This document shows, in pieces, positions 6,687-57,295 of a DNA stretch of 64,000 nt. Under the pieces are notes generated by a model. The model did no database searches. It saw only the letters and a list, made by a program, of their open reading frames with translations, and was not told where the DNA came from. The stretch is from Chloroflexota bacterium (GTDB lineage Bacteria > Chloroflexota > Anaerolineae > Anaerolineales > UBA11858): assembly GCA_016865865.1 (NCBI GenBank), contig VGOC01000004.1:17388-81387 (forward strand), read 5' to 3'. A program made the position numbers and the translations under genes. Numbering within the stretch: position 1 is the first letter of the stretch; every line of letters begins with the position of its first letter.

Positions 6687-6759
6687 TGCCCCCAGGGAGA
6701 TTCGAACTCCCGTTTTAGCCTTGAAAGGGCTGCGTCCTAGTCCCCTAGACGATGGGGGC
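6687..6759 (-). tRNA. tRNA-Glu (anticodon UUC)
   Basis: The minus strand reads GCCCCCATCGTCTAGGGGACTAGGACGCAGCCCTTTCAAGGCTAAAACGGGAGTTCGAATCTCCCTGGGGGCA. It has a 7 bp acceptor stem, a GGGAGTTCGAATCTCCC T-arm and a CTTTCAA anticodon loop, and closely resembles the bacterial tRNA-Glu layout. CCA is not encoded. Confidence 0.85.
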
Positions 6760-9606: not shown

Positions 9607-9618
9607 AGATACCCTCGA

Positions 9619-20579: not shown

Positions 20580-21599
20580 CTAATCCAAGAATTGCTCAGC
20601 GTAATGGCAGGCGACTGCATGATCTGGTCGCAGTTGGCGCAGTTCGGGTTCATCCACAGCGCAGTTTTCCTGAGCAAGGGGGCAACGCGGGTGGAAACGG
20701 CAGCCCGGCGGCGGATTGAGCGGGCTTGGCACATCGCCAGTCAAAATGATGCGTTCGCGCTTCATGGTTGGATCGGGAATTGGGATAGCGGACATCAACG
20801 CCTGAGTATACGGGTGAATCGGCTTACCAAAGAGGTCATCCCTGGGAGCCATCTCAGCGATCTTCCCCAGATACATCACTGCCACGCGGTCGGAGATGTG
20901 CTCGACCACGGCCAAATTATGAGCCACAAACAGATAAGTCAGGCCAAACTCTTTTTGAAGGTCTTTCAACAGATTCAATACCTGGGCCTGGATAGACACA
21001 TCCAACGCCGAGACAGGTTCATCTAAAACGATGAATTTAGGCTGCATAGCCAATGCGCGGGCAATGCCAATGCGCTGGCGTTGACCGCCGGAAAATTCGT
21101 GGGGATAGCGGTTGGCATGGTAATCTTCCAAACCGACCTTGCGGAGCATCTGCATTACTTTATCCACGCGTTCTTTGCCATTGCCCATGCCATGGATTTT
21201 CAAGCCTTCAGCCACAGATTCACCAATTGGCAGGCGAGGATCGAGCGAGGCATACGGATCCTGGAATACGATCTGCATCTGACGGCGCATCTCTTTGAGT
21301 TCTTTTCCCTGAAGCCGGAATACATCAACATCATCGAAGAAAACCGAGCCGCCAGTTGGCGGAACCAGACGAAGCATGGTGTGCCCGGCGGTCGTTTTTC
21401 CACAACCCGACTCGCCTACCAGACTGAGCGTTTCGCCCTCCTTGATGGTGAAACTAATATCGTCCACTGCTTTGACCCAGGCAACGATCCGACGGAATAC
21501 GCCGCCCCGTACAGCATAATACTTCACCAGGTTCTTCACCCGAATTAGATCTCTATTTTTCCCGTTCGAATTTGTAGTTTGTTTCGCCATAATCATCAC
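20580..21599 (-). CDS. Oligopeptide/dipeptide ABC transporter ATP-binding protein (OppF/DppF type)
   Basis: Walker A GESGCGKTT, signature FSGGQRQR, Walker B IVLDEP, and an oligopeptide C-terminal extension. Confidence 0.9.
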   Translation of the reverse strand: MMIMAKQTTNSNGKNRDLIRVKNLVKYYAVRGGVFRRIVAWVKAVDDISFTIKEGETLSLVGESGCGKTTAGHTMLRLVPPTGGSVFFDDVDVFRLQGKELKEMRRQMQIVFQDPYASLDPRLPIGESVAEGLKIHGMGNGKERVDKVMQMLRKVGLEDYHANRYPHEFSGGQRQRIGIARALAMQPKFIVLDEPVSALDVSIQAQVLNLLKDLQKEFGLTYLFVAHNLAVVEHISDRVAVMYLGKIAEMAPRDDLFGKPIHPYTQALMSAIPIPDPTMKRERIILTGDVPSPLNPPPGCRFHPRCPLAQENCAVDEPELRQLRPDHAVACHYAEQFLD

Positions 21600-21614
21600 T
21601 GAGAGGAAAACCTG

Positions 21615-22646
21615 CTATTTCAACGGAGCTTTGTGATCTTCGTAATCTTGAAAAAGCCAGCAGCGCGCCGTATGTTCCGGGCCAACCAGGGTCAAGTCTG
21701 GTTCAACTTTAGTACAGATACCCAGGCCATACTCTGCTCTGGCTTCGCATCGGGAAGCAAAACGACATCCGGGGGGCAGCCCAATCAGGTTGGGGACATT
21801 TCCGGGAATAACCGCCAGCTCATCTTTCACTTTGCCGAGCACAGGCACCGAGGTGATCAATCCGTTGGTATAGGGGTGAGCAGGATTCCGAAACAAGGAT
21901 TTGACATCGGTCTGTTCGACGATGCGTCCTGCGTACATCACCGCCACCCGGTCGGCCATCTCGGCGATCAGGCCCAGGTCGTGGGTGATCAAAATCACCG
22001 AAGTGCCCAGCCGGTTCCTGAGATCCCGCATCAAATCCAGGATCTGGGCCTGGATGGTCACATCCAGGGCGGTGGTCGGTTCGTCAGCGATGAGCAGCCT
22101 CGGCTTGAGCGCCAGCGCCATGGCAATCATCACCCGTTGAGCCTGCCCGCCGGACATTTCATGCGGATAAGCATGAGATTTTTCTTCCACATCCGGGATG
22201 CCGACCAGTTTCAAGAGATCCACGGCATGTTCCCAGGCTTCATCTTTTTTCATTTTTCGGTGGATGCGAAACACCTCGGCAACCTGCGCGCCAACTGTAA
22301 ACACGGGATTAAGGCTCGATTGAGGCTGCTGAAAAATCATCGAGATCAGATTCCCCCGCATATCCACCATTTCAGCCTCTGTGAGTTCGAGCACATTTCG
22401 GCCATCGAAATAGATTTCACCAGCGACGATCTTGCCAGGTTGATCTACCAATCTAAGCACGGAGAATGAGGTCACACTTTTTCCACAACCGGATTCGCCC
22501 ACCAGCCCCAGGATTTCTCCAGGCTGCACATGAAAATCAACGCCATCCACAGCTTTGACGACGCCATCATCGGTGTAGAAATAGGTCTTGAGGTTACAGA
22601 CTTCTAATAGAGGTCGGGAGATGTTATTGGTCACGATACGCTCCAT
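21615..22646 (-). CDS. Oligopeptide/dipeptide ABC transporter ATP-binding protein (OppD/DppD type)
   Basis: Walker A GESGCGKSV, signature MSGGQAQR, Walker B LIADEPTT. Confidence 0.9.
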   Translation of the reverse strand: MERIVTNNISRPLLEVCNLKTYFYTDDGVVKAVDGVDFHVQPGEILGLVGESGCGKSVTSFSVLRLVDQPGKIVAGEIYFDGRNVLELTEAEMVDMRGNLISMIFQQPQSSLNPVFTVGAQVAEVFRIHRKMKKDEAWEHAVDLLKLVGIPDVEEKSHAYPHEMSGGQAQRVMIAMALALKPRLLIADEPTTALDVTIQAQILDLMRDLRNRLGTSVILITHDLGLIAEMADRVAVMYAGRIVEQTDVKSLFRNPAHPYTNGLITSVPVLGKVKDELAVIPGNVPNLIGLPPGCRFASRCEARAEYGLGICTKVEPDLTLVGPEHTARCWLFQDYEDHKAPLK

Positions 22647-22650
22647 CCGA

Positions 22651-23640
22651 TCATTGTTTCAAACGCGGGTCGATGGCGTCGCGCAGACCATCACCTAATA
22701 AATTGAAGGATAAGACAGTGATCATGATTGCTAATCCAGGGAAGAAAACCAGGTGAGGCGCGGTGAATACCTGGTTGCGTTCTGACCCTAACATGGTACC
22801 CCATTCTGGGGTAGGAGGTTGCGCGCCTAACCCTAAGAATGACAGGGCTGCTGCTTCCAGAATGGCGGTTGCGATCCCCAGGGTCCCCTGCACGATCAAT
22901 GGGGGGATGGCGTTGGGCAAGATACGCAGAAACAGGATATGGAATTGTCCGCCACCCAAAGCTCGCGAAGCGGAAACGAATTCTTGCTCCTTGACTGAAA
23001 GCACGCTGGCTCTCACCACCCTGGCATAAACCGGGATCGTTACGATTGCGATGGCCAGCAGCGCATTTTGTAATCCCCGGCCTAGCACAGAAACGATCGC
23101 AATAGCCAGCAAGAGCGAAGGGAAGGCCAATAACACATCCATGAAGCGCATGATGATGTTATCCACCCAACCCCCGAGAAAACCTCCCACCGCGCCGAGC
23201 AGGGTCCCGACGATAATCGCAAAGCCTACTGTTGTGAACCCGATGAACAATGATACCCGCGTGCCGTAAATCACCCGGCTGAAAACATCGCGCACATTTC
23301 CATCAATGCCAAGAATATGCTGAGGCTGATCTTCGGGACAGCCCAGCAAATGAATGCATGGCGAGTCTCGTTTGGATACCTCCTCTTTGCCTATCAGCAC
23401 TTCTTCCGGGTCATAAGGGGCAATGAGCGGGGCAAATATTGCGACCAGGATCAACAAACCCAGCATTATTCCCCCGACAATTGCATTTCGCTGGCGGAAG
23501 ATCCGCCGCATGGTAAGCCGGGCGAGGCTATTGGATCGGTAATCCTTCTCGGTGGTGTTTGGCTCCGGAACCTTACCAGCAACAACACCATCCATGTATT
23601 GATCCATATCGAGTGATTTCTCAGCAGGCATATTGGTCAT
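22651..23640 (-). CDS. Oligopeptide/dipeptide ABC transporter permease (OppC/DppC type)
   Basis: BPD-type permease carrying an EAA-like loop (ASRALGGGQFHILFLRILPNA). The start is taken at the ATG at 23640, just after the oppB stop. Confidence 0.85.
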   Translation of the reverse strand: MTNMPAEKSLDMDQYMDGVVAGKVPEPNTTEKDYRSNSLARLTMRRIFRQRNAIVGGIMLGLLILVAIFAPLIAPYDPEEVLIGKEEVSKRDSPCIHLLGCPEDQPQHILGIDGNVRDVFSRVIYGTRVSLFIGFTTVGFAIIVGTLLGAVGGFLGGWVDNIIMRFMDVLLAFPSLLLAIAIVSVLGRGLQNALLAIAIVTIPVYARVVRASVLSVKEQEFVSASRALGGGQFHILFLRILPNAIPPLIVQGTLGIATAILEAAALSFLGLGAQPPTPEWGTMLGSERNQVFTAPHLVFFPGLAIMITVLSFNLLGDGLRDAIDPRLKQ

Positions 23641-23647
23641 AAGATGT

Positions 23648-24727
23648 TCATTCCAGTTTAATGCGAGGATCAATAAAAACGTATGATAGATCAACGATCA
23701 AATTGACAGCTACATAGCCAACAGCAATGGCTACCGTAAATGCCTGGACGATAGGGAAGTCACGCGCCGTGATCGCTTCGAAGAGCATCCGGCCTACCCC
23801 GGCAATGCTGAAGATCGATTCGGTCAGTACGGCGCCGGCGAAAAGCGTGCCGACCTGCAAGCCGATAATCGTGGCGATGGGTAACAGAGCATTCCGGAAG
23901 GCATGTTTCAAGATGACAATACGTTCGAACAGGCCCTTGGCGCGCGCTGTGCGGATATAGTCTTGCCGTAAAACCTCGAGCATACTGGAGCGAGTCATGC
24001 GGGCGATGATCGAGAGCGGGATCGTCCCCAGCGCCAGTGAGGGCAGAATAAGGTGCGTGATCGCATCTCCAAGGACTTTCCAATCCCCGGTGATAATAGA
24101 GTTCAGGATGAGCATGTTGGAGAAGAAATCTGCCAGTTGGTAACTGAAGGCGCCCTTCGTCAATCCAAGATTGAACACCTCATAGAATGGGATCGAGACT
24201 ACGCCAGCCGAGAGACGTCCGGAGGGAGGCAACCAGAAAGGCGTATCCTTGAGCACAAGAGCGAACAGATAGGCAAGCATCAATCCCAACCAATAGACCG
24301 GCATCGAAACGCCGGTATTGGCGCCGATCATCGTGGCAACATCAATGGCCGAATTCCTCCGCACAGCCGAGAACACTCCCATGGGGATGCCTACAATCGT
24401 GGCGAAAACAAGCGCGGTGAGGCCTAATTCGATCGTGGTCGGCAAACGCTCGATGAGAATTTGAGTCACAGGTCGGCTAAAACGAATCGACATGCCAAAT
24501 TCTCCTCGGGAGATCTCTTTTAGATAGATCAAAAACTGCACATAGATGGGTTTATCCAGGCCATGTTCGCGCGTAAAACGCTCGCACACTTCTGCGGAGG
24601 CTTTTTCTCCCAACATGGCTTTACAAGGGTCGCCTGGGATAGAGCGCGCCAGCACAAAAGTGACCAGCAGAATCCCAAACACGACCGGGATAGATAATAA
24701 AATGCGGCGGATGGCGTATTGAATCAT
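23648..24727 (-). CDS. Oligopeptide/dipeptide ABC transporter permease (OppB/DppB type)
   Basis: N-terminal MIQYAIRRILLSIPVVFGI..., and the motif YIRTARAKGL typical of DppB/OppB. Confidence 0.9.
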   Translation of the reverse strand: MIQYAIRRILLSIPVVFGILLVTFVLARSIPGDPCKAMLGEKASAEVCERFTREHGLDKPIYVQFLIYLKEISRGEFGMSIRFSRPVTQILIERLPTTIELGLTALVFATIVGIPMGVFSAVRRNSAIDVATMIGANTGVSMPVYWLGLMLAYLFALVLKDTPFWLPPSGRLSAGVVSIPFYEVFNLGLTKGAFSYQLADFFSNMLILNSIITGDWKVLGDAITHLILPSLALGTIPLSIIARMTRSSMLEVLRQDYIRTARAKGLFERIVILKHAFRNALLPIATIIGLQVGTLFAGAVLTESIFSIAGVGRMLFEAITARDFPIVQAFTVAIAVGYVAVNLIVDLSYVFIDPRIKLE

Positions 24728-24745
24728 AGGCTATCTCGATTGTAA

Positions 24746-24890
24746 GACAGGTTGATAACCTGTCCAGAAATTACAGTTAGCACCAAACAGGTTAGCAACC
24801 TGCTCTACGGGGGACAGGTTGACAACCTGTCCTACGAATAAAGCAACGCGGGATGGTACGCGTCTCTCAGGGAGATTGTACCATCCCGCG
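24746..24890 (-). repeat. Four intercistronic stem-loops between the binding-protein and permease genes
   Basis: Three related hairpins: GACAGGTTgatAACCTGTC (24746-24764), ACAGGTTagcAACCTG (24787-24803) and GGACAGGTTgacAACCTGTCC (24812-24832). A fourth hairpin with a 13 bp stem, CGCGGGATGGTAC...GTACCATCCCGCG, lies at 24847-24890. Confidence 0.7.
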
Positions 24891-24927
24891 AGTTAGTCAT
24901 TCACCTAAAAAACGGCAGGCGATGATT

Positions 24928-26604
24928 TTACTCCTGGACGTTCATCAAACCGTCCCACAGGTAGGAATAGTATTCCCAGGAACCTGTGTTGCCGATGTGA
25001 TAGGGGCTCGAAGCATCGATACCCGCAGTCCAGGAAACCACGACATCATTGGCGTCGAATTTGGTGCCGTCATGGAAATAGACGCCCTCTCGCAGCGTGC
25101 AGGTCCAAACCGTAGAATCTGCATTGGCTGTGCACCCGGTAGCCAGGCGGGGTTCGACATCGCCAGAGTCGAAGGCATACTCGAAGAGGCCCTCGTTGAC
25201 CTGCTGGCAGGGCGCCAGCGATTCGCCATCGGTCTCGTCGGCGCAGTACAGGCTGATCGGTTCGGCATTCTGCATGAAGACGAAGGTGTCTTTGCCGGGG
25301 TCAACCAGGTTGAACAGCGGCGCGCCGAAGGGGCGGAAGTGTGCATTTTCGATCGTCGCCAGGGCGGCAGAAGCGGAAGCGCCATGAGCAATGGGCACCA
25401 TGGGCACCAATTCCTTGATGGCGTTGTTGGCCTGTACGTAAAGCGCACCAGCCTGTTCAGCATCACCGATCTGGGAAGCCTCTTCCAATACCTCGTAGAT
25501 TTCGGGGAAGGGATCGCCGAACTGCGGATTGGTGGCGCCGAAGTGGAAGTCCAGGAAGTTGGTCACATGGGGGTAGTCGGCGCCCCAGCCCAGCAAGTAG
25601 AACCCATCCAGGCGGCCATTGGTGGACTCATCTATGAACTCGCCCGATTCCATCACCACGACCTCGGCCTCGATGCCAAGGTTGTCGCGCAGTTGGGTTT
25701 GGAATTCGACCGCGACCAGGCCCGGCTCGGGCAGATAGCCGCGGAAGACATCGCGATAGTAGATGGCAGTCTCGAAGCCGTCTGGGAAGCCAGCCTCGGC
25801 CAGCAACGCCTTGGCGCCTTCGGGATCGAATTCGTACCAGGATTCACCCTGGCATCCGTTGGGAATCGAGCAGGGGGTAAAGTGTGAAGCCACCTCAGAA
25901 CCTTCGGGGTAGAAGTTATCCACGATGCGTTGGCGGTCAATACCCATCGCAATTGCCTGACGAACTTTCAGATTGTCGAAAGGCGCGAAGGTGTTGGTCA
26001 TGGCAAGGTAGAGAATGTTGGGATTAGCGACTGGCAGGAAGGTCAGGTTGGCGTCACCTTTGACGGTGTCGAAATCATCCGGGCTGAGGTTGGTGATCTG
26101 ATCCACGGTGCCAGCCTGGAGTTCCAGCAGCCGGGCTGCGCCCTCGGTAGCCCACTTGAAGATCAGGGTCTCATAGGGGGACTTATCGCCATAGTAGCCG
26201 TCGAAGCGCTTGAAGACTACGCTGTCACCCCGGTTCCAGCTTTCCAGATAGAAGGGGCCAGTTCCAACAGGGTGTGAGAGCAAGGTTTCTTTACCTTCGG
26301 TGTTGGCGTAGCTCTCGAGCCATTCACGTGGGTAAATGCCGAAAGGCGTAAAGGCAGCTTTGGCGAGGAAAGCCGGGTCGGGCTTGCACATGCTGAATTC
26401 GACAGTGAACTCATCCAGGGCCTTGATGGATTTGATCTTACCGCCGTAATCACAGCTTGGGGCTTCGAGCGCCAACGGCTCTGAATAGGCGATTTCCTCG
26501 TATGCTCGTTCGACTACAGGCTTCACAGCCGGTTTGCAGGCTGCCAGAACCATGCTAGCCAGGACGAGCAAGGAAACAAAAATAAATAGGGGTTTGTGCT
26601 TCAT
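24928..26604 (-). CDS. ABC transporter substrate-binding lipoprotein, family 5 (OppA/DppA type)
   Basis: The ATG at 26604 is preceded by AAGGAGGA. It has a signal peptide with lipobox LAAC and is SBP_bac_5-like throughout. Confidence 0.9.
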   Translation of the reverse strand: MKHKPLFIFVSLLVLASMVLAACKPAVKPVVERAYEEIAYSEPLALEAPSCDYGGKIKSIKALDEFTVEFSMCKPDPAFLAKAAFTPFGIYPREWLESYANTEGKETLLSHPVGTGPFYLESWNRGDSVVFKRFDGYYGDKSPYETLIFKWATEGAARLLELQAGTVDQITNLSPDDFDTVKGDANLTFLPVANPNILYLAMTNTFAPFDNLKVRQAIAMGIDRQRIVDNFYPEGSEVASHFTPCSIPNGCQGESWYEFDPEGAKALLAEAGFPDGFETAIYYRDVFRGYLPEPGLVAVEFQTQLRDNLGIEAEVVVMESGEFIDESTNGRLDGFYLLGWGADYPHVTNFLDFHFGATNPQFGDPFPEIYEVLEEASQIGDAEQAGALYVQANNAIKELVPMVPIAHGASASAALATIENAHFRPFGAPLFNLVDPGKDTFVFMQNAEPISLYCADETDGESLAPCQQVNEGLFEYAFDSGDVEPRLATGCTANADSTVWTCTLREGVYFHDGTKFDANDVVVSWTAGIDASSPYHIGNTGSWEYYSYLWDGLMNVQE

Positions 26605-26796
26605 GAAATCTTCCTCCTTGAAAAATTGAGCCATTTTTGAAAAAATTGGGAATAGGGAAAATGAATATAGAATGCTGTCTTCTCCTTTCGCTATTTTGTT
26701 TTATGAGAGGAATGGTCATCTTGAATTATACGCTACTATCAGACAGTGTCAAATGAATCAGCGGGATATTTTAGTAAAATCAGGACATCCCTGGTA

Positions 26797-28307: not shown

Positions 28308-29141
28308 CTACACTGCTTTTCGCAGAAATTGACCCCCCCACACCAGTCCGAAAATCGCCGTGCAGGTCAAAACAATCGCCGCGCCAGAAGCGATGCTCAG
28401 ATAGTAAGATAGATACAATCCGATCACCCCTGAAATCGAGGCCATCGCCGCGGAAAGGGCCATCATCACCGGCAGTCGTTTTGTGAGCAGGTAAGCCGTA
28501 GCTGCGGGAGTGACCAACATGGCGACCATCAGGGCTACCCCCACAGTTTGTAGAGAAACCACGATGGTCACAGCGATCAGGATCAAGAGCAGAAACTCCA
28601 GCAAGCGAGCCGGGAGTCGCAATGTAGCTGCCAGAACAGGGTCGAACGAGAGCACCATGAACTCTTTGTAGAAGGCCAAAATCGCCAACAAGACCAATCC
28701 CCCAAAAACAGCAATCAACCATAGATCGCTTGCGCGCACCCCCAGCACGTCTCCGAAGAGAAAGTGCGCCAGGTCAACGGTGTAGCTGCGCACCGTAGAG
28801 ATCAGCGCTACACCCAGTGCAAAAGATCCGGCGAAGATGATGCCAATGGCAGTATCTTCTTTTATCTTGGTGCTGCGGCTGATGGCGCCAATCCCCAGGG
28901 AGCTGAGTATCGCGGCGACCAGCGCCCACCAGAAGAGCGGTTCCCGCGACCCCCCGCCGATCAGATAACCGACCGCGATCCCAGGCAGGATGGCATGAGC
29001 CAGGGCGTCGCCAAAGAAGGCCATGCCGCGCAGCACGACGTATGTGCCGACGATTGCACAGACAATGCCAACCATCACAGATGCGGCCAGCCCGCGAGCC
29101 ATAAAAGCGTATTGGAGGGGTTCGAGTAGAAAGTTGATCAT
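28308..29141 (-). CDS. Metal (Zn/Mn-type) ABC transporter permease, ABC-3 family
   Basis: 277 aa, polytopic, ZnuB/MntB-like (FGDALAHAILPGIA...). Confidence 0.85.
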   Translation of the reverse strand: MINFLLEPLQYAFMARGLAASVMVGIVCAIVGTYVVLRGMAFFGDALAHAILPGIAVGYLIGGGSREPLFWWALVAAILSSLGIGAISRSTKIKEDTAIGIIFAGSFALGVALISTVRSYTVDLAHFLFGDVLGVRASDLWLIAVFGGLVLLAILAFYKEFMVLSFDPVLAATLRLPARLLEFLLLILIAVTIVVSLQTVGVALMVAMLVTPAATAYLLTKRLPVMMALSAAMASISGVIGLYLSYYLSIASGAAIVLTCTAIFGLVWGGQFLRKAV

Positions 29142-29204
29142 ATTCTCTGTTAGCGAGTTAGAGTTTGGGAGTTAGGGGTTGGGAAGTTCGACAACCTCTG
29201 AACT

Positions 29205-30050
29205 TCATGACTCGTTATCCCCACAGCATGTATCTCCTAAAGCCAGCATACCCTCCTCTGTGGGCACCCAATGCAGGCGTCCCCCATAGGCGGACAATAA
29301 ATTCTCGGGGGTCAGCACCCACCCCGGGGTTCCAATCCCGAGCATCCGCTGATTGAGAAGCATTACCTGATCGAAGCGCTGAGTAGCCATCTTCAAGTCA
29401 TGCAACGACACCAGCACCGTTACCCCACGCGCTTTGAGATCATCTAAAATGCGAAAAACTTCTTCCTGGGAATTGATATCCAGCCCGGTGAAAGGCTCGT
29501 CCATCAGCATCAGTTCAGCTTCTTGAGCCAGGGCGCGGGCGATGAACATGCGCTGCTGTTGACCACCTGAGAGCTGATTGATCTGCCGTCTGGCAAGATC
29601 GCTCATCCCAACGATTTTCAAGGCCTGCTCGACGAGATTCCAATCGCTGGTTCTGGGGTTTCGGAAGAGGCCCAATTGCCCCACTCGCCCCATCATCACC
29701 ACATCCGCAACGGTGACCGGGAAATTCCAATCAACCTGGCTGCGCTGCGGCACATAGGCAATGCAAATATGCCCTCCCGGTTCGTTCCCGTAGATGTGCA
29801 CCCGTCCCTCGGTAGGCTGCAATACCCCGGCGATGATCTTGAGCAAAGTGCTCTTGCCAGCGCCATTTGGGCCGACGATAGCCAGACGTTCTCCTGTCAT
29901 CAACACGAATGAGGCCCCTTCGAGCGCGACGCCACTTTCGTAACGAAGGCCCAGACCCTCAGCGCGTAAAATCGGCGCGCCGTCCTGATGGGGTAGGCGA
30001 TGTTTGCGGAGATGTTGGGTGGTTTTGTGGAGTTCTTCGAAAAGGGACAT
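29205..30050 (-). CDS. Metal (Zn/Mn-type) ABC transporter ATP-binding protein
   Basis: Walker A GPNGAGKST, signature LSGGQQQR, Walker B LMLMDEP. Confidence 0.85.
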   Translation of the reverse strand: MSLFEELHKTTQHLRKHRLPHQDGAPILRAEGLGLRYESGVALEGASFVLMTGERLAIVGPNGAGKSTLLKIIAGVLQPTEGRVHIYGNEPGGHICIAYVPQRSQVDWNFPVTVADVVMMGRVGQLGLFRNPRTSDWNLVEQALKIVGMSDLARRQINQLSGGQQQRMFIARALAQEAELMLMDEPFTGLDINSQEEVFRILDDLKARGVTVLVSLHDLKMATQRFDQVMLLNQRMLGIGTPGWVLTPENLLSAYGGRLHWVPTEEGMLALGDTCCGDNES

Positions 30051-30079
30051 TAGGGGGTAGGGGGGTAGGAGTTAGGAGG

Positions 30080-31030
30080 TTAGGGAGTAGGTGTGAGGGC
30101 ATTTATGAAGGTGGTTGTATTGTAACGCATATACGCTAAATAGGTGTCGGCATCTCCACCTGTCTCGCTGAGGGAGCCGGTGTAAACATAGATGAGTAGC
30201 ACACCTGTATCTTCGGCGAGGCGTTCGGCTAAGGTAGGGTTGACCGTATTGCCGACGAAAACAGCGCTGATCTCCAAAGCGGCGATCGAATCTTCGAGTT
30301 CAGCCAGTTCTTGCGCCGTGGGTTCGGCCAATGTGCTGTAACCAGCGATCAACGCGCCAACCTGGTCGAAGCCATACTCGTCAGCGAAGTAACCGAAGAG
30401 GGAGTGATCGGTGACGAGTTTGCGTTTCTCTTCTGGAATCTGGGATGCCTGTTCACGGATCCAGGCATCCAATTCCTCAAGCTCAGCCAGATATTTTCCG
30501 GCGTTTGCTTCGTAAACATCTCCATTTTCGGGGTTTTCTTCATGGAGCGCCCTCTCGATATTGTGAACCCAAATCATCACGTTATTTGGATCCGTCCAGG
30601 TGTGCGGGTCGGCGTGGCTGCGGCCTTCTTCTTCGGATATCAGGAAGTCGATCCCTTCGGAAACCTGCACGACCTTATCTTCCGCGCCGGCGCTTTCGAT
30701 CAGGTGATCGAGGAATTCCTCCAACCCGGCGCCGTTGGCAAAGATCAAATCAGCCTCAGCTACTCGGGCAATATCTTGAGGGGTGGGATCGAAACTATGC
30801 GGATCACTTCCCACTGGGAGTAAAATACTCAATCCGATAAGGTCGCCTCCCACCTGGGAGACCACGTCCCCTACGATGGTGGTGGTGGCGACAACCTCGA
30901 GCTTGCCAACACCCGAGGGCTGATCCGTCAGTGGGCTGCAGGCGGTCACGAACGCCATTCCGGTGAACAACACCGGAAACAGCATCAACGCGCCCGTTTG
31001 TGATAGCGACTTGAAAACGTTTTTCATCAT
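30080..31030 (-). CDS. Metal-binding lipoprotein, cluster A-I (ZnuA/TroA family)
   Basis: Lipobox FVTAC, plus DPHTWTDP and a TroA-like two-lobe layout. Confidence 0.85.
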   Translation of the reverse strand: MMKNVFKSLSQTGALMLFPVLFTGMAFVTACSPLTDQPSGVGKLEVVATTTIVGDVVSQVGGDLIGLSILLPVGSDPHSFDPTPQDIARVAEADLIFANGAGLEEFLDHLIESAGAEDKVVQVSEGIDFLISEEEGRSHADPHTWTDPNNVMIWVHNIERALHEENPENGDVYEANAGKYLAELEELDAWIREQASQIPEEKRKLVTDHSLFGYFADEYGFDQVGALIAGYSTLAEPTAQELAELEDSIAALEISAVFVGNTVNPTLAERLAEDTGVLLIYVYTGSLSETGGDADTYLAYMRYNTTTFINALTPTP

Positions 31031-31080: not shown

Positions 31081-31839
31081 TTACGGCTTTTCCAACCCAT
31101 GCGCTTCTAACAAAACCCCATCTTCCAGGAGCTTTGCCGTTGGGCCATCTGCTACAACGAATCCCTCATCCATGATGACCATGCGCGGGAACAATTCTTC
31201 GACCATTGCCAAATCGTGAGTGGATATCAGCATGGTGATAGGCAGCTCGCGCAAGAGATTGATCAGCGAACGGCGGGCGCGCGGGTCGAGGCCTGAGGAG
31301 GGTTCATCCAACACTAATATCTGGGGGCGCATTGCCAGCACAGTTGCAATGGCAATGCGTTTCTTTTGACCTGCGCTCAGGTGGTGAGAGAGTCGCTTGC
31401 CAAAATCGTCCATCTGCACAGCAGCAAGCGCTTCATCCACACGGGTGTAAACTTCGGCCTCTGGCAAGCCCATGTGCAAGGGGCCGAAAGCCACATCGTC
31501 GAACACCGTTGGGGAAAACAACTGATCGTCTGGATTATGGAAGACCAACCCCACCATCGCCCGGATGATAGGCAGATTCTCTCTGGTTATGGACATCCCG
31601 GCGATCGAGATGGAACCATGCCCGCGCAAAATCCCATTGAGGTGCAACATCAGCGTGGATTTACCCGCCCCATTGGGTCCTACCACGGCTACTTTTTCAC
31701 CCTCACACACATTCAGGCTCACACCTCGCAGCGCAACGCGCCCATCAGGATACGCAAAGCGCAGATCACGAATTCGAAGGATATCACCTTTGCATTCGGG
31801 TATCGTGATTTCATAATCAGGTGGATGTTTCACTGGCAT
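31081..31839 (-). CDS. cbiO: ECF-type cobalt/nickel transporter ATPase (CbiO/NikO)
   Basis: Walker A GPNGAGKST, signature LSAGQKKR, Walker B LVLDEPSSGLD. The ATG at 31839 shares one nucleotide with the cbiQ stop (TGATG). Confidence 0.85.
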   Translation of the reverse strand: MPVKHPPDYEITIPECKGDILRIRDLRFAYPDGRVALRGVSLNVCEGEKVAVVGPNGAGKSTLMLHLNGILRGHGSISIAGMSITRENLPIIRAMVGLVFHNPDDQLFSPTVFDDVAFGPLHMGLPEAEVYTRVDEALAAVQMDDFGKRLSHHLSAGQKKRIAIATVLAMRPQILVLDEPSSGLDPRARRSLINLLRELPITMLISTHDLAMVEELFPRMVIMDEGFVVADGPTAKLLEDGVLLEAHGLEKP

Positions 31840-32633
31840 CAGCGCACCCATCCCAACAATTGGATAAAGGACAAAACGGCCAGCGAGAGAATCAAAGCTA
31901 GCCAATCTAGCCTGGTCATGGCATGGGGGTTGAGCGTGCGCAAGTGACCTGTGTAACCGCGCCCCAGCATGGCGTAGTAGATGCGGTCGGAGCGCTCGTA
32001 GCTGCGCAGGAATAACTGTCCAACCATACTGCCGGTCACTTTCGCGCGCCAGGTCAATCTGCCGCCGCGCTTTCTGCCTTGCAGACTGGCGCTGCGGGCT
32101 TCGCGGGCGCGCAGCAGACGCAAAGCTTCGTCAGTCAGTACGAAGAGGTAACGATACAGGAAGGCAATGATGGTGGTCAGAATACGCGGCAGACGCAGGT
32201 GTTCGAACGCATGGATCAGGTCGGGAAATTGTGTGGTGGCTACCAGTAGAATCGCCATCTGCACCGATAGCCAGGAGCGGACGAGAATGCTGAAAAAGCG
32301 CGCCACGCCGAAATTGGTGGGGATGAGCGTAATAAACCCCAGATGCCATTGAGCCAGTGGTTTTCCCAACGGCGAGAATATGACGCTTATGGCAACCAGC
32401 ACGAACGGCAGAACAATGTACGAGCGTTTGAAAGTGTAGCCCAATCCCAGGCGCGAGAGATCATTTCCCAACAGCAACACCAACCAGGCGACCGCAAACG
32501 CCAGCCAATTGCCATCCGGCAAGATCGCGTTGGACAAGATGAATGCGACGGTCACCGCTGCCTTGACGCGCGCGTCCAGGCGGTGGATCAGGCTATCCTG
32601 AAAATGGTAGTGGTCGAAAACGTTGATGTGCAT
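31839..32633 (-). CDS. cbiQ: ECF transporter T component (CbiQ/NikQ)
   Basis: 264 aa, polytopic, with ARG-type motifs (ALRLLRAREARS). Confidence 0.8.
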   Translation of the reverse strand: MHINVFDHYHFQDSLIHRLDARVKAAVTVAFILSNAILPDGNWLAFAVAWLVLLLGNDLSRLGLGYTFKRSYIVLPFVLVAISVIFSPLGKPLAQWHLGFITLIPTNFGVARFFSILVRSWLSVQMAILLVATTQFPDLIHAFEHLRLPRILTTIIAFLYRYLFVLTDEALRLLRAREARSASLQGRKRGGRLTWRAKVTGSMVGQLFLRSYERSDRIYYAMLGRGYTGHLRTLNPHAMTRLDWLALILSLAVLSFIQLLGWVR

Positions 32634-32677
32634 GGGAGGATGTCAAGTGCCAGGTGTCAGGTTCCAGGGATTGGGGA

Positions 32678-33622
32678 TCAGGTATGGGGGGGCGATTTGC
32701 GCAGGCTCCGGCCAAGTAAGATCAATAGTCCCAGCAATACCAGTGCGCCAACCATTCCGGCGATGATGGTGGAGAGATGAGTTTCACCCAGGAAGGGGAT
32801 GGTATAGTCGGGCAAGATTTCGCAGGGGGCGCTCTGGCCGATTTCTAAGAAGCCCAGGTTTTCGGCGACACGCTCCAGGCCATCGGGCGAGCCAGAAGCC
32901 AGCGGCGAAAGCAGCACCGCCAGCAACGATACGATGATCCCTGCAATAATCCAGCCGCGCCCTCCGCCGGACGCGGCTTTCTCGCTAGTCAAAAGATCAG
33001 GCCGGGTCCGTTCGATGAAAGCCAGCGCGGCCACAGTGATCAGCGCTTCGCCGAGGCCGATCGGCGTATGGACGCCGAGCATCGCCGGAAGGACGATCTC
33101 CAGCCGGGATGCGCCGCTCAACCAGAGCTGTAATGACGTCAACAAAGCGGCTGCCATGGTCGCCAGCCAGGAAGCCAGGCCAGCCGCGACCAGGCGCGCA
33201 CCTATCTTGCGATGGATCACCATCCGGTAGAGGCCAAAACCGATCACCACAGTGAGAATGCCCATGTTGAAAATATTGGCGCCCATCACCAGCAGGCCGC
33301 CATCCTGGAAGAGCAAGGCTTGAACGGCGATAACGGCTGTCATGACCAGGATTCCAGCCCAAGGCCCCAACACAATCGCCGCCAGGGCGCCGCCCAGGAA
33401 GTGACCCGATGTTCCCCCCGCCACCGGGAAGTTGAGCATTTGGGCGGCAAAGATGAAAGCCGCCATGAGGCCCATCAAGGGAATTTGCCTTTCCCCCAGG
33501 GTTTTATTCGTTTTCGATATTGCCAGGCCAACCATGATCATCGTCGCCCCCCAAAAGACCAGCGAAATAAATGGGGTCAAAAAACCATCTGGAATATGCA
33601 GAGGAGCAGGGGAAAGCAGCAT
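32678..33622 (-). CDS. Cobalt/nickel ECF S component CbiM/NikM fused to a PDGLE (CbiN/NikN-like) C-terminal domain
   Basis: The conserved HIPDGF motif lies near the N-terminus, with FPVAGGTSGH downstream. The C-terminal region contains GSPDGLERVAE plus one TM helix. A strong AAGGAGGA Shine-Dalgarno sequence precedes the ATG. Confidence 0.85.
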   Translation of the reverse strand: MLLSPAPLHIPDGFLTPFISLVFWGATMIMVGLAISKTNKTLGERQIPLMGLMAAFIFAAQMLNFPVAGGTSGHFLGGALAAIVLGPWAGILVMTAVIAVQALLFQDGGLLVMGANIFNMGILTVVIGFGLYRMVIHRKIGARLVAAGLASWLATMAAALLTSLQLWLSGASRLEIVLPAMLGVHTPIGLGEALITVAALAFIERTRPDLLTSEKAASGGGRGWIIAGIIVSLLAVLLSPLASGSPDGLERVAENLGFLEIGQSAPCEILPDYTIPFLGETHLSTIIAGMVGALVLLGLLILLGRSLRKSPPHT

Positions 33623-53171: not shown

Positions 53172-53474
53172 CTACGAACGCGGTTTAGCGATATGCCAGA
53201 TCACTTTTCCGATCAGGTCGTGCTTTGGGATCGGACCAAACTGGGAGCTATCCAGGCTGTGAGGATGCGCGCCAGTGACATATACCCCCTTGCCGTCCGC
53301 CTCGTTATGAGCAAACTTCTTGATCATCGTGCCATACTGTTCGTGCTGGAAGACGAGCACATCCCCCGGCTTGAGGGCATTCAAGAAAAGAGGACTCGTC
53401 GCAAGGACTACGAAATCCCCTTCTTCGAACTCAGGTGAGAGGCTGTCGCCCGTCACTCTCATGATTTTGAACAT
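53172..53474 (-). CDS. sodX: S26-family protease, likely NiSOD maturation protease SodX
   Basis: 100 aa with the minimal signal-peptidase-like core (VTGDSLSPEF...GDVLVF...MIKKF...). It lies in the same cluster as sodN. Confidence 0.7.
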   Translation of the reverse strand: MFKIMRVTGDSLSPEFEEGDFVVLATSPLFLNALKPGDVLVFQHEQYGTMIKKFAHNEADGKGVYVTGAHPHSLDSSQFGPIPKHDLIGKVIWHIAKPRS

Positions 53475-53637
53475 TTATTATCTCCTTCCCTATGCCTCCG
53501 CAACACGCCGACCATCCTTGACGCCGCTCGCAAAATGAAGCCAAACGAGGCTAACCAACTGCGCTAACACGCCGCATGCGTTCTGTCGCCAGGGGGTGTG
53601 TGTTTGCGTACGCGCCATTTGCTAATCAACTCAGCCC

Positions 53638-55260
53638 TTAGCTGCTGAGCAATTCGTAGACCATTCTCTGTCCATCCACTACGGGCAACTTAGCCATGCC
53701 CTGGCGCCCGAAGATGAAGTGGTGTTTCATCGCGCCCAGGTGGCGATAGGTGGTTTCACAGATCAGCATTCCTCCCTCACGCATATAAATGGCAAATGAA
53801 CCCAACTTGCGGGCGACATGACCAGCCTGGGAGGTTAGGACTGGCGTAATCCAGTTCGACGGTTTCGCCTCCTGAAGAGCCACCTCGCCAGTAGAGATGC
53901 CCATGCCAATCTTAAACGTTTTCAATCCCTGGCCTGCAAGCTGATCATTGAAGCATTCCACCAAAATCTTCAAATCCAATCCCGTGCGAACCGCTGTCAA
54001 GGCGCAAGCTTGCGGAGATGCGTGAGCGCCCAGGCCAAAAGAAGCTAACAGCGAACCATCGTCGAGCCGCTCGACCAGCCCGCCATTGCTTTCCAGACGC
54101 TCGACGACATCGGCGATAGGACCGAGCGCTGCCAATCGGCCATCCCCAGTAGAGGCGGCTTCTCTATGCAACGCAATCGCCAGGACCGCGATCTGCCAGA
54201 TTTCCTCCCTCAGGATTCGGACGGTGGGCAGCGGAGTGCGCAGCTCGGGTCTGGATTCGTCGCTCACCTGGATGGCGCTGCGCTTCCTGGCTGGAACCTG
54301 CTTAACAGAGACCACCCGTGAAATAGAGCGTGGTTCGGCGACATCGTGCAATCCCAAAGCGATCAGATAAAAGGAGGCCGCAAAGAGAGAGATCGCCAAA
54401 GCCGAAGTCACCATCACATTCCAGGGGATCGCGCCGTTGATCTGTCGGTAAGTCTCGGCGTCGTAGATCATGCTGCCCCAGTTCAACTGAGCCCGGGAGA
54501 GACCCAGGAAGGCAATGAAACCGTTTGCAAAGATCGCCCCGGTCACCGTCAGGAGCATATTGACCGACGCCAGCGGTAGCATATGGGGGATCAGGTGGCG
54601 GCCAATGATGTGGAGCGCCCCTCCCCCTGCAATTCGAGCGGCAGCGATGAAGTTTTTGTTCATGATCGTCAACGCGTGGGCGCGTAACACGGTTGCCACC
54701 CCGCCAATACCGACCAAAAAGCCATAGAGCAAGCCGAACTTCAAGGGACTGATATCCAGCATAAAGCCGATGACCACCATCACGATCGGCGCAGGAGCAA
54801 GGAGCGATAGATCCGCCAGGTTCGAAAAAAGGTCATCCACCAGGCCGCGATAATAAGCTGATACCGCTCCGATGAGGGTGCCAATAATCGCAGCGGTCAA
54901 GGCGGCGGTCAAAGCCATCTGCAGCGAGGGCCGCGTGGCCGCCATCAAGATGCTGAGCACATCACGCCCCAGGGTATCCGTTCCCAGGGGATGTCCCGGG
55001 CCCGGCGGAGAGGGATGTGGGAATATATTCACATCGTACCCCACCACCGGGTCATAAATACCCTTGGGCCATACGGTGCGCATCATCATTGGATGTGCAA
55101 CCGCCATCAACAGGTAGATCACTAACACCAACAGTCCCAAGACGGCCAGCTTGTTACGTTTGTAGATTCGCCATGAATCCCTCGAACGCGTCCAGCTCGA
55201 GATCAGCCAGATCTTGAAACGTTCTTTTCGAGATATGATAAGGATTTTTTGATTGGGCAT
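53638..55260 (-). CDS. Nik/Dpp-type ABC permease (NikC/DppC-like) fused to a C-terminal class III nucleotide-cyclase-like domain
   Basis: Residues 1-310 are a BPD permease (GTDTLGRDVLS, AARIAGGGALHIIGRHLIPH). Residues 350-538 are collinear with cyclase homology domains (GGLVERLDDGSLLASFG, KIGMGISTGEV, AGHVARKL, MVYEL), but the first metal-binding Asp is missing. Confidence 0.75.
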   Translation of the reverse strand: MPNQKILIISRKERFKIWLISSWTRSRDSWRIYKRNKLAVLGLLVLVIYLLMAVAHPMMMRTVWPKGIYDPVVGYDVNIFPHPSPPGPGHPLGTDTLGRDVLSILMAATRPSLQMALTAALTAAIIGTLIGAVSAYYRGLVDDLFSNLADLSLLAPAPIVMVVIGFMLDISPLKFGLLYGFLVGIGGVATVLRAHALTIMNKNFIAAARIAGGGALHIIGRHLIPHMLPLASVNMLLTVTGAIFANGFIAFLGLSRAQLNWGSMIYDAETYRQINGAIPWNVMVTSALAISLFAASFYLIALGLHDVAEPRSISRVVSVKQVPARKRSAIQVSDESRPELRTPLPTVRILREEIWQIAVLAIALHREAASTGDGRLAALGPIADVVERLESNGGLVERLDDGSLLASFGLGAHASPQACALTAVRTGLDLKILVECFNDQLAGQGLKTFKIGMGISTGEVALQEAKPSNWITPVLTSQAGHVARKLGSFAIYMREGGMLICETTYRHLGAMKHHFIFGRQGMAKLPVVDGQRMVYELLSS

Positions 55261-55282
55261 CGTTTTGCTAAGAGCAATGTCC

Positions 55283-56434
55283 TTATAGCGACGAAACGAT
55301 TCGGATGCGCGGATCCAATGCAGCCAACAGCACCTCCAGGAGCAGGCGCGCCAGCAACGCTACCACACCGATTACAATGGTAGCGCCCAGCGCCAGAGGG
55401 ATGTTCTGCATACCGACGGCATAGAACAATGTCGTGCCGATCCCCTGTACATTCATCACCTCTTCGATCATCACCATGCTGGAGAGCAGGAATGGCAGGC
55501 TGATCATCAATCTGCTGGTAACAGGCAGAAGCGCGTTGCGAGCGGCATGTTGGTCACGAACCTTGTGGTCGGCCAGGCCCTTGGCCCGAGCGATCTGCAC
55601 ATAGTCTTCGTGTAAGGTATCTACCATTGTGGTGCGCATGATCAACATCACTTCGCCGAAAGTAAGCAGAACGTAGGTTGCCGTTGGGATCGCCATCTGG
55701 CGCAAGATGCCTGGAACAAGGTCATGAATACCGAACAATAACCAACTCCCGGCCCAGAGGATCGTCATCAGCAGGGAAAAAACGATCTGGGGAAGTGGTC
55801 GCTTGAAAAAACGGCGCGCCAGCCAATTGGACATCAGCGCAGCCAACAAAGCCAGAATCAACCCCACCAGCATTCGAGAGATCGTCTGCGCCTGATCTAC
55901 GCCGGGCGCGTCGAACCTCGGGCGACCGCCCAGGCTCACCGGGATGCCAAATCGCAGGGCGATGAACTCGTACATCAGAAATGCTATCCAGGGCGGAAAG
56001 GAAGTGTAAAGCGCAATGGACACGAAAGTGATCGAGCCTGTAACCACCCCAGGGCCCCGCCAGGCCGCCACCCTGCCCAGCCACTGCCCTAGCAGGAAGG
56101 CGACCACCGTTCCCAGACCAAAGATCAGCATCGTGATCGGCGCCGTTTGAATGAGAATTTGTGTAACAGGCGGCCCCATCCCCCAGGGAGAAAATGATGT
56201 CCCCAGGTCGCCCCTCGACACATGCGAAAGCCAATTCAGATAACGCTGCCAGAGTGGCGCATCGAGCTTCAGTTCCTCGCGCAATGTCGCGGCTTCGCTG
56301 GGCGTCAACCCCAACGCAAACTGGCTGACGTAATCGCCAGGCAGGATAGCCTGTATGCTGAAAAAAAGGAGAGATACATAGATGAACAAAAGAACCAGGC
56401 CTGTCAACAGGCGTTTGAAGAGGTATCGAATCAT
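55283..56434 (-). CDS. Nik/Dpp-type ABC permease (NikB/DppB-like)
   Basis: N-terminal MIRYLFKRLLTGLVLL, plus YVQIARAKGL. Polytopic. Confidence 0.85.
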   Translation of the reverse strand: MIRYLFKRLLTGLVLLFIYVSLLFFSIQAILPGDYVSQFALGLTPSEAATLREELKLDAPLWQRYLNWLSHVSRGDLGTSFSPWGMGPPVTQILIQTAPITMLIFGLGTVVAFLLGQWLGRVAAWRGPGVVTGSITFVSIALYTSFPPWIAFLMYEFIALRFGIPVSLGGRPRFDAPGVDQAQTISRMLVGLILALLAALMSNWLARRFFKRPLPQIVFSLLMTILWAGSWLLFGIHDLVPGILRQMAIPTATYVLLTFGEVMLIMRTTMVDTLHEDYVQIARAKGLADHKVRDQHAARNALLPVTSRLMISLPFLLSSMVMIEEVMNVQGIGTTLFYAVGMQNIPLALGATIVIGVVALLARLLLEVLLAALDPRIRIVSSL

Positions 56435-56543
56435 AAGGTCACTCCCTGACAGATCTGTACACTGTTCTCTTATTCAACCATTTGGTCTGCTATGTCCCAG
56501 CTATCGCTAAAAACTACCTGTTCCTTAAGCAATCCGTGGCGTT

Positions 56544-57032
56544 TTACAGCTCAGGATAAACCATAACCAGCGCTGGAGCGTAGGGCGCCTTGGCCTTTTT
56601 GGTCTTGATGCCTTTGATGGCCCAGAAAATCTCGGCGAATTGATTGATGGCTTCCACGAAATCCAGCCCGGCCTGGCGGTCGGCGGTCTGGCGGGCTTTG
56701 GAACCCAATTGCATGATCTTCTTGACCAGCTCATTGAGTTCTGGATATTTTTCCACATGCTCGGGTTTGATAAAGTCACCCCAAATCACACGCACTTCGT
56801 GTTTGGCCTGCTCGGCATGATCTTCTTTGACGGCTATGTAGCGGGACATGCTATTTTGGTAAGACGCGCCTTCGCCTTCCAGAGCCGCCATCAGATCCAT
56901 CATGCGCACAACGGTCAAGGCGCTGATCTGGGCGGCGATGGGATCATAGATGCCGCAAGGAATATCGCAGTGGGCCTTTGCTTGCTCGAATCCCAATTTT
57001 TCATCCAACATTTTCAGGAATTTGTACATCAT
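56544..57032 (-). CDS. sodN: Nickel superoxide dismutase precursor
   Basis: The Ni-hook HCDIPCGIYDP follows a 20 aa leader (MMYKFLKMLDEKLGFEQAKA). The ATG at 57032 is preceded by GGAGG. The longer ORF-track start runs into a palindromic repeat. Confidence 0.9.
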   Translation of the reverse strand: MMYKFLKMLDEKLGFEQAKAHCDIPCGIYDPIAAQISALTVVRMMDLMAALEGEGASYQNSMSRYIAVKEDHAEQAKHEVRVIWGDFIKPEHVEKYPELNELVKKIMQLGSKARQTADRQAGLDFVEAINQFAEIFWAIKGIKTKKAKAPYAPALVMVYPEL

Positions 57033-57097
57033 TTTGACCTCCAATCGTAAGAAGAATACTTTGTGTTCACTGAATAAACTCATGAAGGAGAGGGTGA

Positions 57098-57148
57098 GGC
57101 GGCATATATGGGGGCGCGCGCGAAGCGCGCGCCCCCATATATGCCGCC
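57098..57148. repeat. Perfect GC-rich palindrome with 24 bp arms
   Basis: GGCGGCATATATGGGGGCGCGCGC-gaa-GCGCGCGCCCCCATATATGCCGCC lies in the sodN / PIG-L divergent intergenic region. Confidence 0.7.
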
Positions 57149-57295
57149 CCGAATTCGCTATGCGTAGTTTTTTCAGTGGACTCATGCTTTCGAATTCGGA
57201 ATATTCGACGCCTGTGATGATACTTAATAAGACTCATCTCGTCAAGTTAGAAGGCGGTTTTTCGATCGCTTTCGGTATAATGGCGCTGGTGTCGT

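Follow-up and report, generated by a model that had tools for sequence, protein, structure and literature searches.

An OppC-type ABC importer permease with a C-terminal degenerate class III cyclase homology domain in an uncultured Anaerolineales bacterium

Regulation of ATP-binding cassette (ABC) importers is known to proceed via accessory domains that are added to the ATPase subunits, and it is unusual for the membrane subunit to carry such a domain. In a stretch of 64,000 nucleotides of contig VGOC01000004.1 from an uncultured Anaerolineales bacterium (hereafter the window), the minus-strand open reading frame at positions 53638-55260 encodes a protein of 540 amino acids (followed by a stop codon) in which an importer permease of the OppC type is continued by a region that resembles class III nucleotide cyclases. 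This locus raises the question whether such a fusion protein is genuine, whether its tail could be an enzyme, and what the tail could contribute to a transporter. A first-pass annotation of the window had proposed an ABC permease fused to a non-catalytic pseudo-cyclase, which was suggested either to sense a cytoplasmic ligand and gate transport, or to take over contacts normally made with an ATPase.

The analysis described here leaves very little doubt that the protein is a genuine and conserved fusion of an OppC permease and a class III cyclase homology domain (CHD). As far as full-text searches show, both the domain architecture and this bacterial clade of pseudo-cyclases are new, and the parts belong to known kinds.

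Architecture and spread of the fusion protein

On basis of the open reading frame, Pfam matches and homologues, the gene is divided as follows (positions in the window).

53638..55260, minus strand: whole gene, OppC-type ABC importer permease with degenerate class III CHD
54328..55260, minus strand: permease module (residues 1-311), with the OppC_N helix, the six-helix BPD_transp_1 core and the EAA-type coupling loop FIAAARIAGGGALHIIGRHLIPHMLP
54208..54327, minus strand: basic, hypervariable linker, predicted to be disordered (residues 312-351)
53641..54207, minus strand: degenerate class III CHD, putative pseudo-cyclase (residues 352-540)

By its domain content, the N-terminal half belongs to the OppC/DppC/NikC permeases: BPD_transp_1 was matched at residues 127-311 (57.6 bits) and OppC_N at residues 26-59 (36.6 bits), both above the Pfam cut-offs. 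The NCBIfam models showed that residues 1-311 resemble Opp/Dpp/Nik C-type permeases, with every score far below the equivalog cut-off, and no substrate is assigned by these family scores; the NikC equivalog assignment was not reached with TIGR02790 (89.7 versus 358 bits) or NF045474 (112.5 versus 300 bits). The permease half could be aligned end to end with the solved Escherichia coli OppC (8Z21_B) and DppC (8Z1V_B). These chains finish 2-3 residues past the position equivalent to residue 311, and the last ~229 residues of the fusion protein are therefore an addition. In OppC, the N- and C-terminus are both cytoplasmic. The coupling loop is intact in the window protein and fits the pattern of an OppC-type EAA loop, the loop of the partner permease OppB is likewise canonical, and A207, G212, H222, P225, H226, P229 and L230 are invariant among 28 fusion sequences. 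The solved PepT-family importers, i.e., OppBCDF (8Z21) and DppBCDF (8Z1V) of E. coli and OppABCD (8J5Q) of Mycobacterium tuberculosis, share with the window protein OppC_N, BPD_transp_1, the EAA loop and the OppB partner, whereas the C-terminal extension and an operon devoid of OppD/F and binding-protein genes distinguish the window system from them.

A full-length protein search recovered the identical protein (P0001) on 7 contigs, as well as 27 further full-length homologues of 543-611 amino acids (47-67% identity, 93-100% coverage) and a contig-end fragment of 435 amino acids that is 85% identical (P0003). The homologues stem from assemblies of JGI, ENA, NCBI and Logan; where a source is named, it is a metagenome-assembled genome of Anaerolineales. 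Both permease and tail were confirmed by a local search with hidden Markov models (HMMs) in all homologues, plus the more distant P0124. Moreover, the fusion is a single called open reading frame in nine independent loci, and none of the 28 full-length members contains a truncation or a stop codon. With an architecture that is common to 30 independent homologues (47-85% identity), the fusion is real, and the sequencing frameshift that the first-pass annotation had named as a possible cause is excluded.

The fusion family looks rare. When 185,579 GTDB species representatives were scanned with a tail pattern obtained from an 8-sequence alignment, 31 stretches matched and none of these was a relative; with a permease pattern based on the full-length alignment, all of the at least 80 matches listed among the species representatives end at approximately residue 311-425, and none enters the tail. 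A word-indexed protein search returned nothing with the tail alone, one fragment with the tail profile, and 28 proteins with the full-length query. For short divergent domains, a negative from such a search is no sign of absence and, since the word index misses fusions from tail queries, the family size given here rests on the full-length and HMM searches. In full-text literature searches (ABC permease with CHD, the two Pfam names, and class III cyclase/permease fusion) no description of the architecture was encountered, in agreement with the earlier remark that a fusion between an ABC importer permease and a cyclase-like domain was not known to have been described. An Arthrospira genome paper that names both Pfam families proved to contain a domain-count table only, without description of a fusion.

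By sequence profile and predicted fold, residues ~352-539 are almost certainly a class III CHD. In a single-sequence phmmer search against all PDB chains, the window tail matched cyclases only, among them a chimera of phytochrome and Cya2, as well as Synechocystis Cya2 itself (2W01, E=1.3e-7). When 25 family tails were combined in a profile, Pseudomonas aeruginosa CyaB (3R5G, chain positions 7-194) was matched with E=1.7e-11 by positions 10-200 of this profile, and Cya2 and human soluble adenylyl cyclase were the next matches. PF00211 was matched individually by 6 of the 25 family tails, and homologue P0019 carries a precomputed PF00211 annotation. For the window's own tail (the last ~220 residues) no Pfam family reaches its threshold, and among the NCBIfam models it faintly resembles TOMM kinase/cyclase in the cyclase portion (E=0.007). 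An AlphaFold2 model of the tail, built with an alignment, had a mean predicted local distance difference test (pLDDT) score of 91.4 and a predicted template modelling (pTM) score of 0.88, and the best 50 matches of this model in a Foldseek search against the PDB were all class III cyclase catalytic domains (E to 6.5e-11, probability 1.00, TM ~0.7). The predicted structure and its Foldseek matches agree with the beta-alpha-beta-beta-alpha-beta core and the beta4-beta5 arm of the CHD fold.

These data bear out the cyclase homology that had been proposed for the C-terminal ~190 residues at positions 53647-54213, which correspond exactly to residues 350-538; the motifs that had been quoted in its support (IAVLAIAL, GGLVERLDDGSLLASFG, ACALTAVRTGLDL, KIGMGISTGEV, AGHVARKL and VDGQRMVYEL) are all present in the translation. 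With the class III cyclases CyaB (3R5G), Cya2 (2W01) and Spirulina CyaC (1WC1), the tail has in common the fold, the order of secondary-structure elements and profile similarity over the whole domain, as well as the GG..., FG and GIxxG motifs, and the hydrophobic L/I and the T of GG-LI(C/S)E-T.

The two halves are joined by a linker that is basic in the window protein (residues ~312-352, 9 K+R versus 4 D+E), and that across the family varies in length from 28 to 85 amino acids and is rich in P/A/S/T/G/Q/E. Mean pairwise identity among 28 aligned members amounts to 73% for the permease, 15% for the linker and 34% for the CHD; the difference between CHD and linker, together with the retention of core Gly and hydrophobic residues, suggests that selection acts on the CHD as a fold. 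Between the available DNA pairs, tail identity is 25-56%, so that synonymous sites are saturated. In the full-length AlphaFold2 model both domains are folded and residues 317-350 have a pLDDT of 31-36; the pTM of this model is 0.47, and therefore no confident docking of the CHD on the membrane domain is proposed by it. According to the model, the CHD hangs on a flexible, disordered cytoplasmic tether. In sensor cyclases, in contrast, conformational changes are transmitted by a coiled coil or a HAMP domain.

Loss of catalytic residues and relatives of the tail

The canonical positions of class III cyclases were read from a family-HMM alignment of all tails with CyaB and Cya2, and the residues of CyaB and of the window protein are as follows.

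First metal Asp: D in CyaB, A in the window protein
Substrate Lys: K in CyaB, R in the window protein
Gly-Asp with the second metal Asp: GD in CyaB, DG in the window protein
Phosphate Arg: R in CyaB, W in the window protein
Second substrate position: T in CyaB, V in the window protein
Transition-state Asn: N in CyaB, H in the window protein
Transition-state Arg: R in CyaB, K in the window protein

The substitutions reported by the first-pass annotation (first metal Asp to Ala, GD to DG, Asn to His, and transition-state Arg to Lys) are thereby confirmed. The first metal Asp and the substrate Lys are both absent from all 30 fusion proteins, an Asp at the second metal position occurs in two of them (P0013 and P0022), and the transition-state Asn and Arg are retained in one and seven, respectively, with P0017 having both; a complete catalytic set is found in none (0/30). 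At the beta7-beta8 Lys position, which is involved in triphosphate binding in canonical enzymes, the window protein has Pro526, which is 97% conserved in the family. Compared with the class III cyclases, the tail thus has both metal Asp residues, the substrate Lys, the Asp/Thr position, the phosphate Arg, the Asn, the Arg and the beta7-beta8 Lys replaced. The pair that specifies the substrate, being Lys with Asp/Thr or Glu with Cys/Gly in active enzymes, is Arg with Val in the window protein.

The tail positions that are at least 70% conserved are nearly all Gly or hydrophobic core residues, which are common to active cyclases, and polar conservation specific to the family is limited to the HH pair (H513 86%, H514 76%) and K450 (76%), while R519 and E536 also occur in the MFS forms and in some of the canonical cyclases. 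Across the family, no conserved polar residue was found at the former active-site positions, nor an alternative set of conserved acidic residues. The Cys of the LICE motif (C501) is present in 16 of 28 members, and all members with this Cys have the HH pair. The most invariant motif of the tail comprises G454, I455 and G458, which belong to the GIxxG strand, where the dimerisation arm has its base. Since the first metal Asp is lacking throughout, the fusion family as a whole is, judged from its residues, a pseudo-cyclase that has kept the fold and no conserved pocket chemistry. This supports the non-catalytic reading proposed earlier, and provides a clear bacterial example of a putative pseudo-enzyme whose fold is that of the class III cyclases.

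When 1.84 billion representatives were searched exhaustively with the tail by HMMER, 61 proteins were identified at E<=1e-3. Besides the OppC fusions, these include six MFS transporter clusters in which the C-terminus is formed by a CHD (P0122, P0126, P0132, P0145, P0157 and P0162), many dCache_3/HAMP-CHD receptors and, at weaker scores, AAA_16/TPR cyclases. The MFS-CHD tails are 29-37% identical to the query tail, are equally degenerate at the catalytic positions and cluster in a neighbour-joining tree with the OppC tails, apart from canonical cyclases; the complete D-K-GD-R-T-N-R set is confined to more distant tail matches (e.g., P0130, P0142 and P0152). The IMG automatic annotation of P0122 reads 'MFS family permease/class 3 adenylate cyclase', and no paper studying MFS-CHD proteins was found in the literature. 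As the MFS and OppC proteins carry related dead CHDs, one domain has been attached at the C-terminus of transporters from two unrelated superfamilies, the MFS carriers operating without an ATPase partner.

The canonical catalytic residues are also absent from many receptor-type dCache_3-HAMP-CHD proteins (P0127, P0128, P0129, P0133, P0136, P0139, P0150 and others), and the relatives of the tail suggest a wider clade of membrane-associated pseudo-cyclases. One tail relative pairs an FtsX-type permease domain (PF02687) with a CHD; P0168 was considered as such a protein and rejected, because it contains PF00211 only.

Sister OppC permeases have C-terminal extensions of 140-217 amino acids or N-terminal extensions of ~100-160 amino acids, with weak and recurrent matches to TPR families, as listed below.

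C-terminal TPR-like extensions: P0062, P0070, P0074, P0082, P0083 and P0085
N-terminal TPR-like extensions: P0081, P0110, P0115 and P0119
Also with a TPR-like extension: L092, positions 9001-10380

The tail-less orthologues and these TPR-like extensions indicate that the CHD is an optional and swappable module. The occurrence of a dead CHD on OppC-type and MFS proteins, and of TPR-like modules within the ABC clade, points to a reusable cytoplasmic module by which transporters are organised or regulated in Anaerolineae-type bacteria. The permeases P0033-P0048 have N-terminal extensions of ~100 amino acids without Pfam match, and P0116 and P0120 are OppB-OppC fusions of 760 amino acids.

Possible roles of the tethered domain

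The specific role that is favoured here, with a probability of about 0.4-0.45, is that of a tethered, non-catalytic protein-protein interaction module. The CHD would produce no cAMP or cGMP and would replace no ATPase; in the most likely form of this proposal it would act as a dimerisation or adaptor domain, joining two transporter complexes or recruiting a cytoplasmic partner. In doing so it would modulate or organise transport, while the transport cycle itself would not depend on it. Such a role is suggested by the dimeric state in which CHDs normally function, together with the position of the most invariant tail motif (GIxxG) at the base of the dimerisation arm, and the TPR-like extensions of sister permeases point in the same direction. 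Several observations weigh against this proposal. Each OppBC heterodimer has a single CHD, and dimerisation would thus require that two complexes come together or that a partner is supplied in trans; neither the window nor the flanking regions of 12 related loci encode a second CHD. Moreover, the HH pair and the Cys of the LICE motif could form a metal or ligand site, which favours a sensor, and the TPR matches on the sister permeases are mostly below the Pfam thresholds.

The fusion protein can be compared with several known systems. In trans-inhibition, C-terminal regulatory domains such as those of MetN (C2), ModC and MalK are located on the ATPase subunit in two copies, and bind substrate or regulator. 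The CHD is likewise an extra cytoplasmic domain of an importer subunit, with a presumed regulatory role, whereas it is placed on the membrane subunit, as one copy, with a fold that is unrelated to theirs and with no ligand known for it. In PelD, LapD and FimX, the receptor or scaffold is a degenerate GGDEF/EAL domain, and degenerate second sites are found in the C1/C2 pair of transmembrane adenylyl cyclases (tmAC) and the alpha/beta pair of soluble guanylyl cyclase (sGC). In all of these, catalysis has been lost and the domain was kept for binding or scaffolding, as may be the case here; they retain a nucleotide or allosteric pocket, whereas no conserved pocket residues are evident in the CHD. 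Transporter-cyclase chimeras of eukaryotes include the potassium-channel-like adenylyl cyclases of Paramecium and Plasmodium. Another eukaryotic chimera is the P4-ATPase-guanylate cyclase of alveolates and stramenopiles, which has an active cyclase pair (PMC13466520). It resembles the window protein in that a membrane transport protein bears a class III CHD at its cytoplasmic end, and differs from it by its active intramolecular C1/C2 pair, in contrast to the single, apparently dead CHD on a type-I ABC importer permease in a bacterium.

It is conceivable, at rather long odds, that the OppC-CHD and MFS-CHD proteins together form a class of transporter-tethered pseudo-cyclases that link transport to cyclic-nucleotide signalling, in which the dead CHD would heterodimerise with a genuine cyclase protomer encoded elsewhere in the genome and, by contributing no catalytic residue, would silence this protomer or localise it at the transporter, and the transporter would act as a 'transceptor' that sets local cAMP/cGMP. 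If the domain does pair with active cyclases, nutrient or metal uptake would be connected to cyclic-nucleotide signalling.

The best placed of the alternatives, although itself unlikely, is a cytoplasmic ligand sensor, in which the pseudo-cyclase would bind a nucleotide, a metal (e.g., Ni) or a metabolite and gate the importer in a manner resembling trans-inhibition. The domain is cytoplasmic and attached to a transporter, H513/H514 and the LICE Cys could constitute a metal site, the sodN/sodX surroundings of the gene in the window suggest nickel traffic, and the degenerate second sites of heterodimeric cyclases (tmAC and sGC) bind allosteric ligands. These points speak for the earlier suggestion that the domain senses a ligand and gates transport, which on the whole finds little support: no former active-site position has a conserved polar residue, the canonical ligand pocket of CHDs is located at a dimer interface and yet a single CHD is available per OppBC complex, and conformational signals would be poorly conducted by a linker that is long, disordered and hypervariable. 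In addition, MFS transporters carry the same domain, and other permeases of the clade have TPR-like modules in its place.

An evolutionary relic is improbable. According to this explanation, an ancestral active transporter-cyclase fusion would have lost its activity, with the tail persisting without present function. It would account for the loss of every catalytic residue, for the much faster divergence of the tail than of the permease, and for the tail-less orthologous permeases within the same synteny block. The fold core is, however, preserved in members down to 47% overall identity, the tail is modelled with high confidence and is free of truncations and stop codons, its identity is well above that of the linker, and the MFS sister clade has retained the same degenerate domain.

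The probability is very low that the tail still is an enzyme, i.e., a non-canonical cyclase or a catalyst of the nucleotidyl-transferase type that makes use of other residues. An intact fold and the isolated canonical residues in P0017, P0013 and P0022 are compatible with this, and are outweighed by the universal lack of the first metal Asp, the absence of a complete set from every member, the conserved Pro in place of the triphosphate-binding Lys, and the lack of an alternative conserved acidic set.

Scarcely credible, too, is the idea that the CHD is an ATPase surrogate that takes the position or the contacts of a nucleotide-binding domain, by which the missing adjacent ATPase gene would be explained. 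No ABC ATPase gene adjoins the permease pair in any of the 10 fusion contexts, including the window; the orthologous pairs without a tail lack an adjacent ATPase gene as well. Furthermore, the EAA loops of both permeases are canonical, the tether is floppy and the CHD undocked in the model, the MFS transporters to which the same domain is fused have no ATPase, and ATPases of the OppD/F type are encoded elsewhere in the window. The earlier suggestion that the domain substitutes for ATPase contacts is therefore unsupported, and this surrogate was rejected together with the active cyclase and the frameshift artefact. An assembly or frameshift artefact joining two genes, for which no supporting point was found, can practically be dismissed in view of the identical protein on 7 contigs, the 27 homologues from independent assemblies and the single gene in 9 loci.

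Gene neighbourhood, ATPase supply and candidate substrate

The genes that surround the fusion gene on the same strand are the following.

55283..56434, minus strand: OppB-type partner permease of 383 amino acids, 22 bp upstream of the fusion gene (Pfam BPD_transp_1_N and BPD_transp_1; NCBIfam Opp2B/Opp3B-like)
56544..57032, minus strand: sodN, upstream and co-oriented, encoding a Ni-containing superoxide dismutase (Ni-SOD) with the HCDIPCG Ni-hook (Pfam Sod_Ni 8e-46; TIGR02753 169 versus a cut-off of 90 bits)
53172..53474, minus strand: SodX-like S26-type peptidase of 100 amino acids, 163 bp downstream and co-oriented (TIGR02754 sod_Ni_protease; Pfam Peptidase_S26/S24)

An OppB gene (383-389 amino acids) is located directly upstream of the OppC-CHD gene in every related locus. 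Next to OppC, a typical Opp operon encodes OppB, a pair of ATPases and a binding protein of family 5, and of these only OppB adjoins the fusion gene. In 7 of the 10 fusion contexts (L001/L002, L005/L006, L088, L089, L090, L094 and the P0014 contig) the pair belongs to a block with the order PilZ(-), OppB-OppC-CHD(+), PHP(-), SecG, SBP_bac_5 and TPR-SLT(-), of which the outer flanks vary; the exceptions are the window, L003/L004 and L087. The SBP_bac_5 gene is located 1.3-3.3 kb downstream in most related loci, and this is not so in the window, which is without PilZ, PHP, SecG and TPR-SLT genes and in which the binding protein of the block is matched only weakly (29%), by a protein of the window's other Opp operon. 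The window OppB is 79% identical to that of L001, and the window pair is therefore the orthologous pair in a rearranged position. Sister permeases that lack a CHD are found in the same PHP-SecG-SBP_bac_5 block (P0036, 332 amino acids, in L091; P0044, 418 amino acids, in L093), which indicates that orthologous permeases occur with and without the CHD, as an optional addition.

The other Opp operon of the window is a complete Opp/Dpp-type operon at positions 20580-26634 (minus strand), encoding SBP_bac_5, OppB, OppC, and OppD and OppF with oligo_HPY. Its ATPases (20580-22646) are the sole ones of the OppD/F type in the window, and are candidates to energise OppB/OppC-CHD in trans. Since the OppB pairing and the EAA loop have been kept, the permease should still be driven by OppD/F-type ATPases encoded elsewhere, and the transporter should be a conventional ATPase-dependent importer.

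In the region 53172-57185 (minus strand), sodN, oppB, oppC-CHD and the sodX-like gene are co-oriented, the transporter pair being located between sodN and the protease gene. The start of sodN at 57032 (M52) is probable; the reading frame remains open to 57185, 50 codons farther upstream, and the mechanical open reading frame call is thus too long. From its sequence, the mature N-terminus of SodN would be the HCDIPCG Ni-hook after cleavage of a propeptide. The SodX-like peptidase has TIGR02754 as its best NCBIfam match (E=5.9e-13, model positions 2-90 of 90), with 49 bits being below the cut-off of 63 bits. A promoter-like site was found upstream of sodN (57245-57217) and no convincing internal terminator, the promoter and terminator signals all being weak and near background; the four genes are possibly co-transcribed.

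In cyanobacteria, the nickel permease gene sodT is co-localised with sodN and sodX, and its product has been proposed as the Ni supplier (PMC4284471). The gene order in the window is reminiscent of these sodN-sodX-sodT clusters, and the sodN/sodX neighbourhood at this single locus suggests that the substrate of OppB/OppC-CHD here may be nickel for the Ni-SOD. Arguing against this assignment, the sodN/sodX-like context occurs in the window only among the 10 fusion contexts, with the PilZ/PHP/SecG/SBP block replacing it in seven. In addition, the window encodes a Ni/Co transporter of the energy-coupling factor type, CbiM(PDGLE)-CbiQ-CbiO (31081-33622, minus strand), and the Opp-like pair is therefore not the sole possible nickel route. 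A search with Rfam of the window and five related loci revealed no riboswitch near the pair, the only match being a tRNA at 6687-6759.

The PilZ protein of the block is a single-domain protein of ~113 amino acids with the RxxxR and D-x-T-x-x-G motifs, and its gene is divergently oriented upstream of oppB. It was located at the following positions.

L001: 8189-8530
L005: 5022-5375
L088: 6321-6665
L089: 3798-4142
L090: 2578-2922
L093: 7273-7611
L094: 963-1304

The PilZ gene also occurs beside a tail-less orthologue (L093), and this neighbour may provide the transporter with a cyclic di-GMP link that is independent of the CHD. Finally, the window contains a ZnuA/ABC-3/ABC_tran metal uptake system at 28308-31030 (minus strand).

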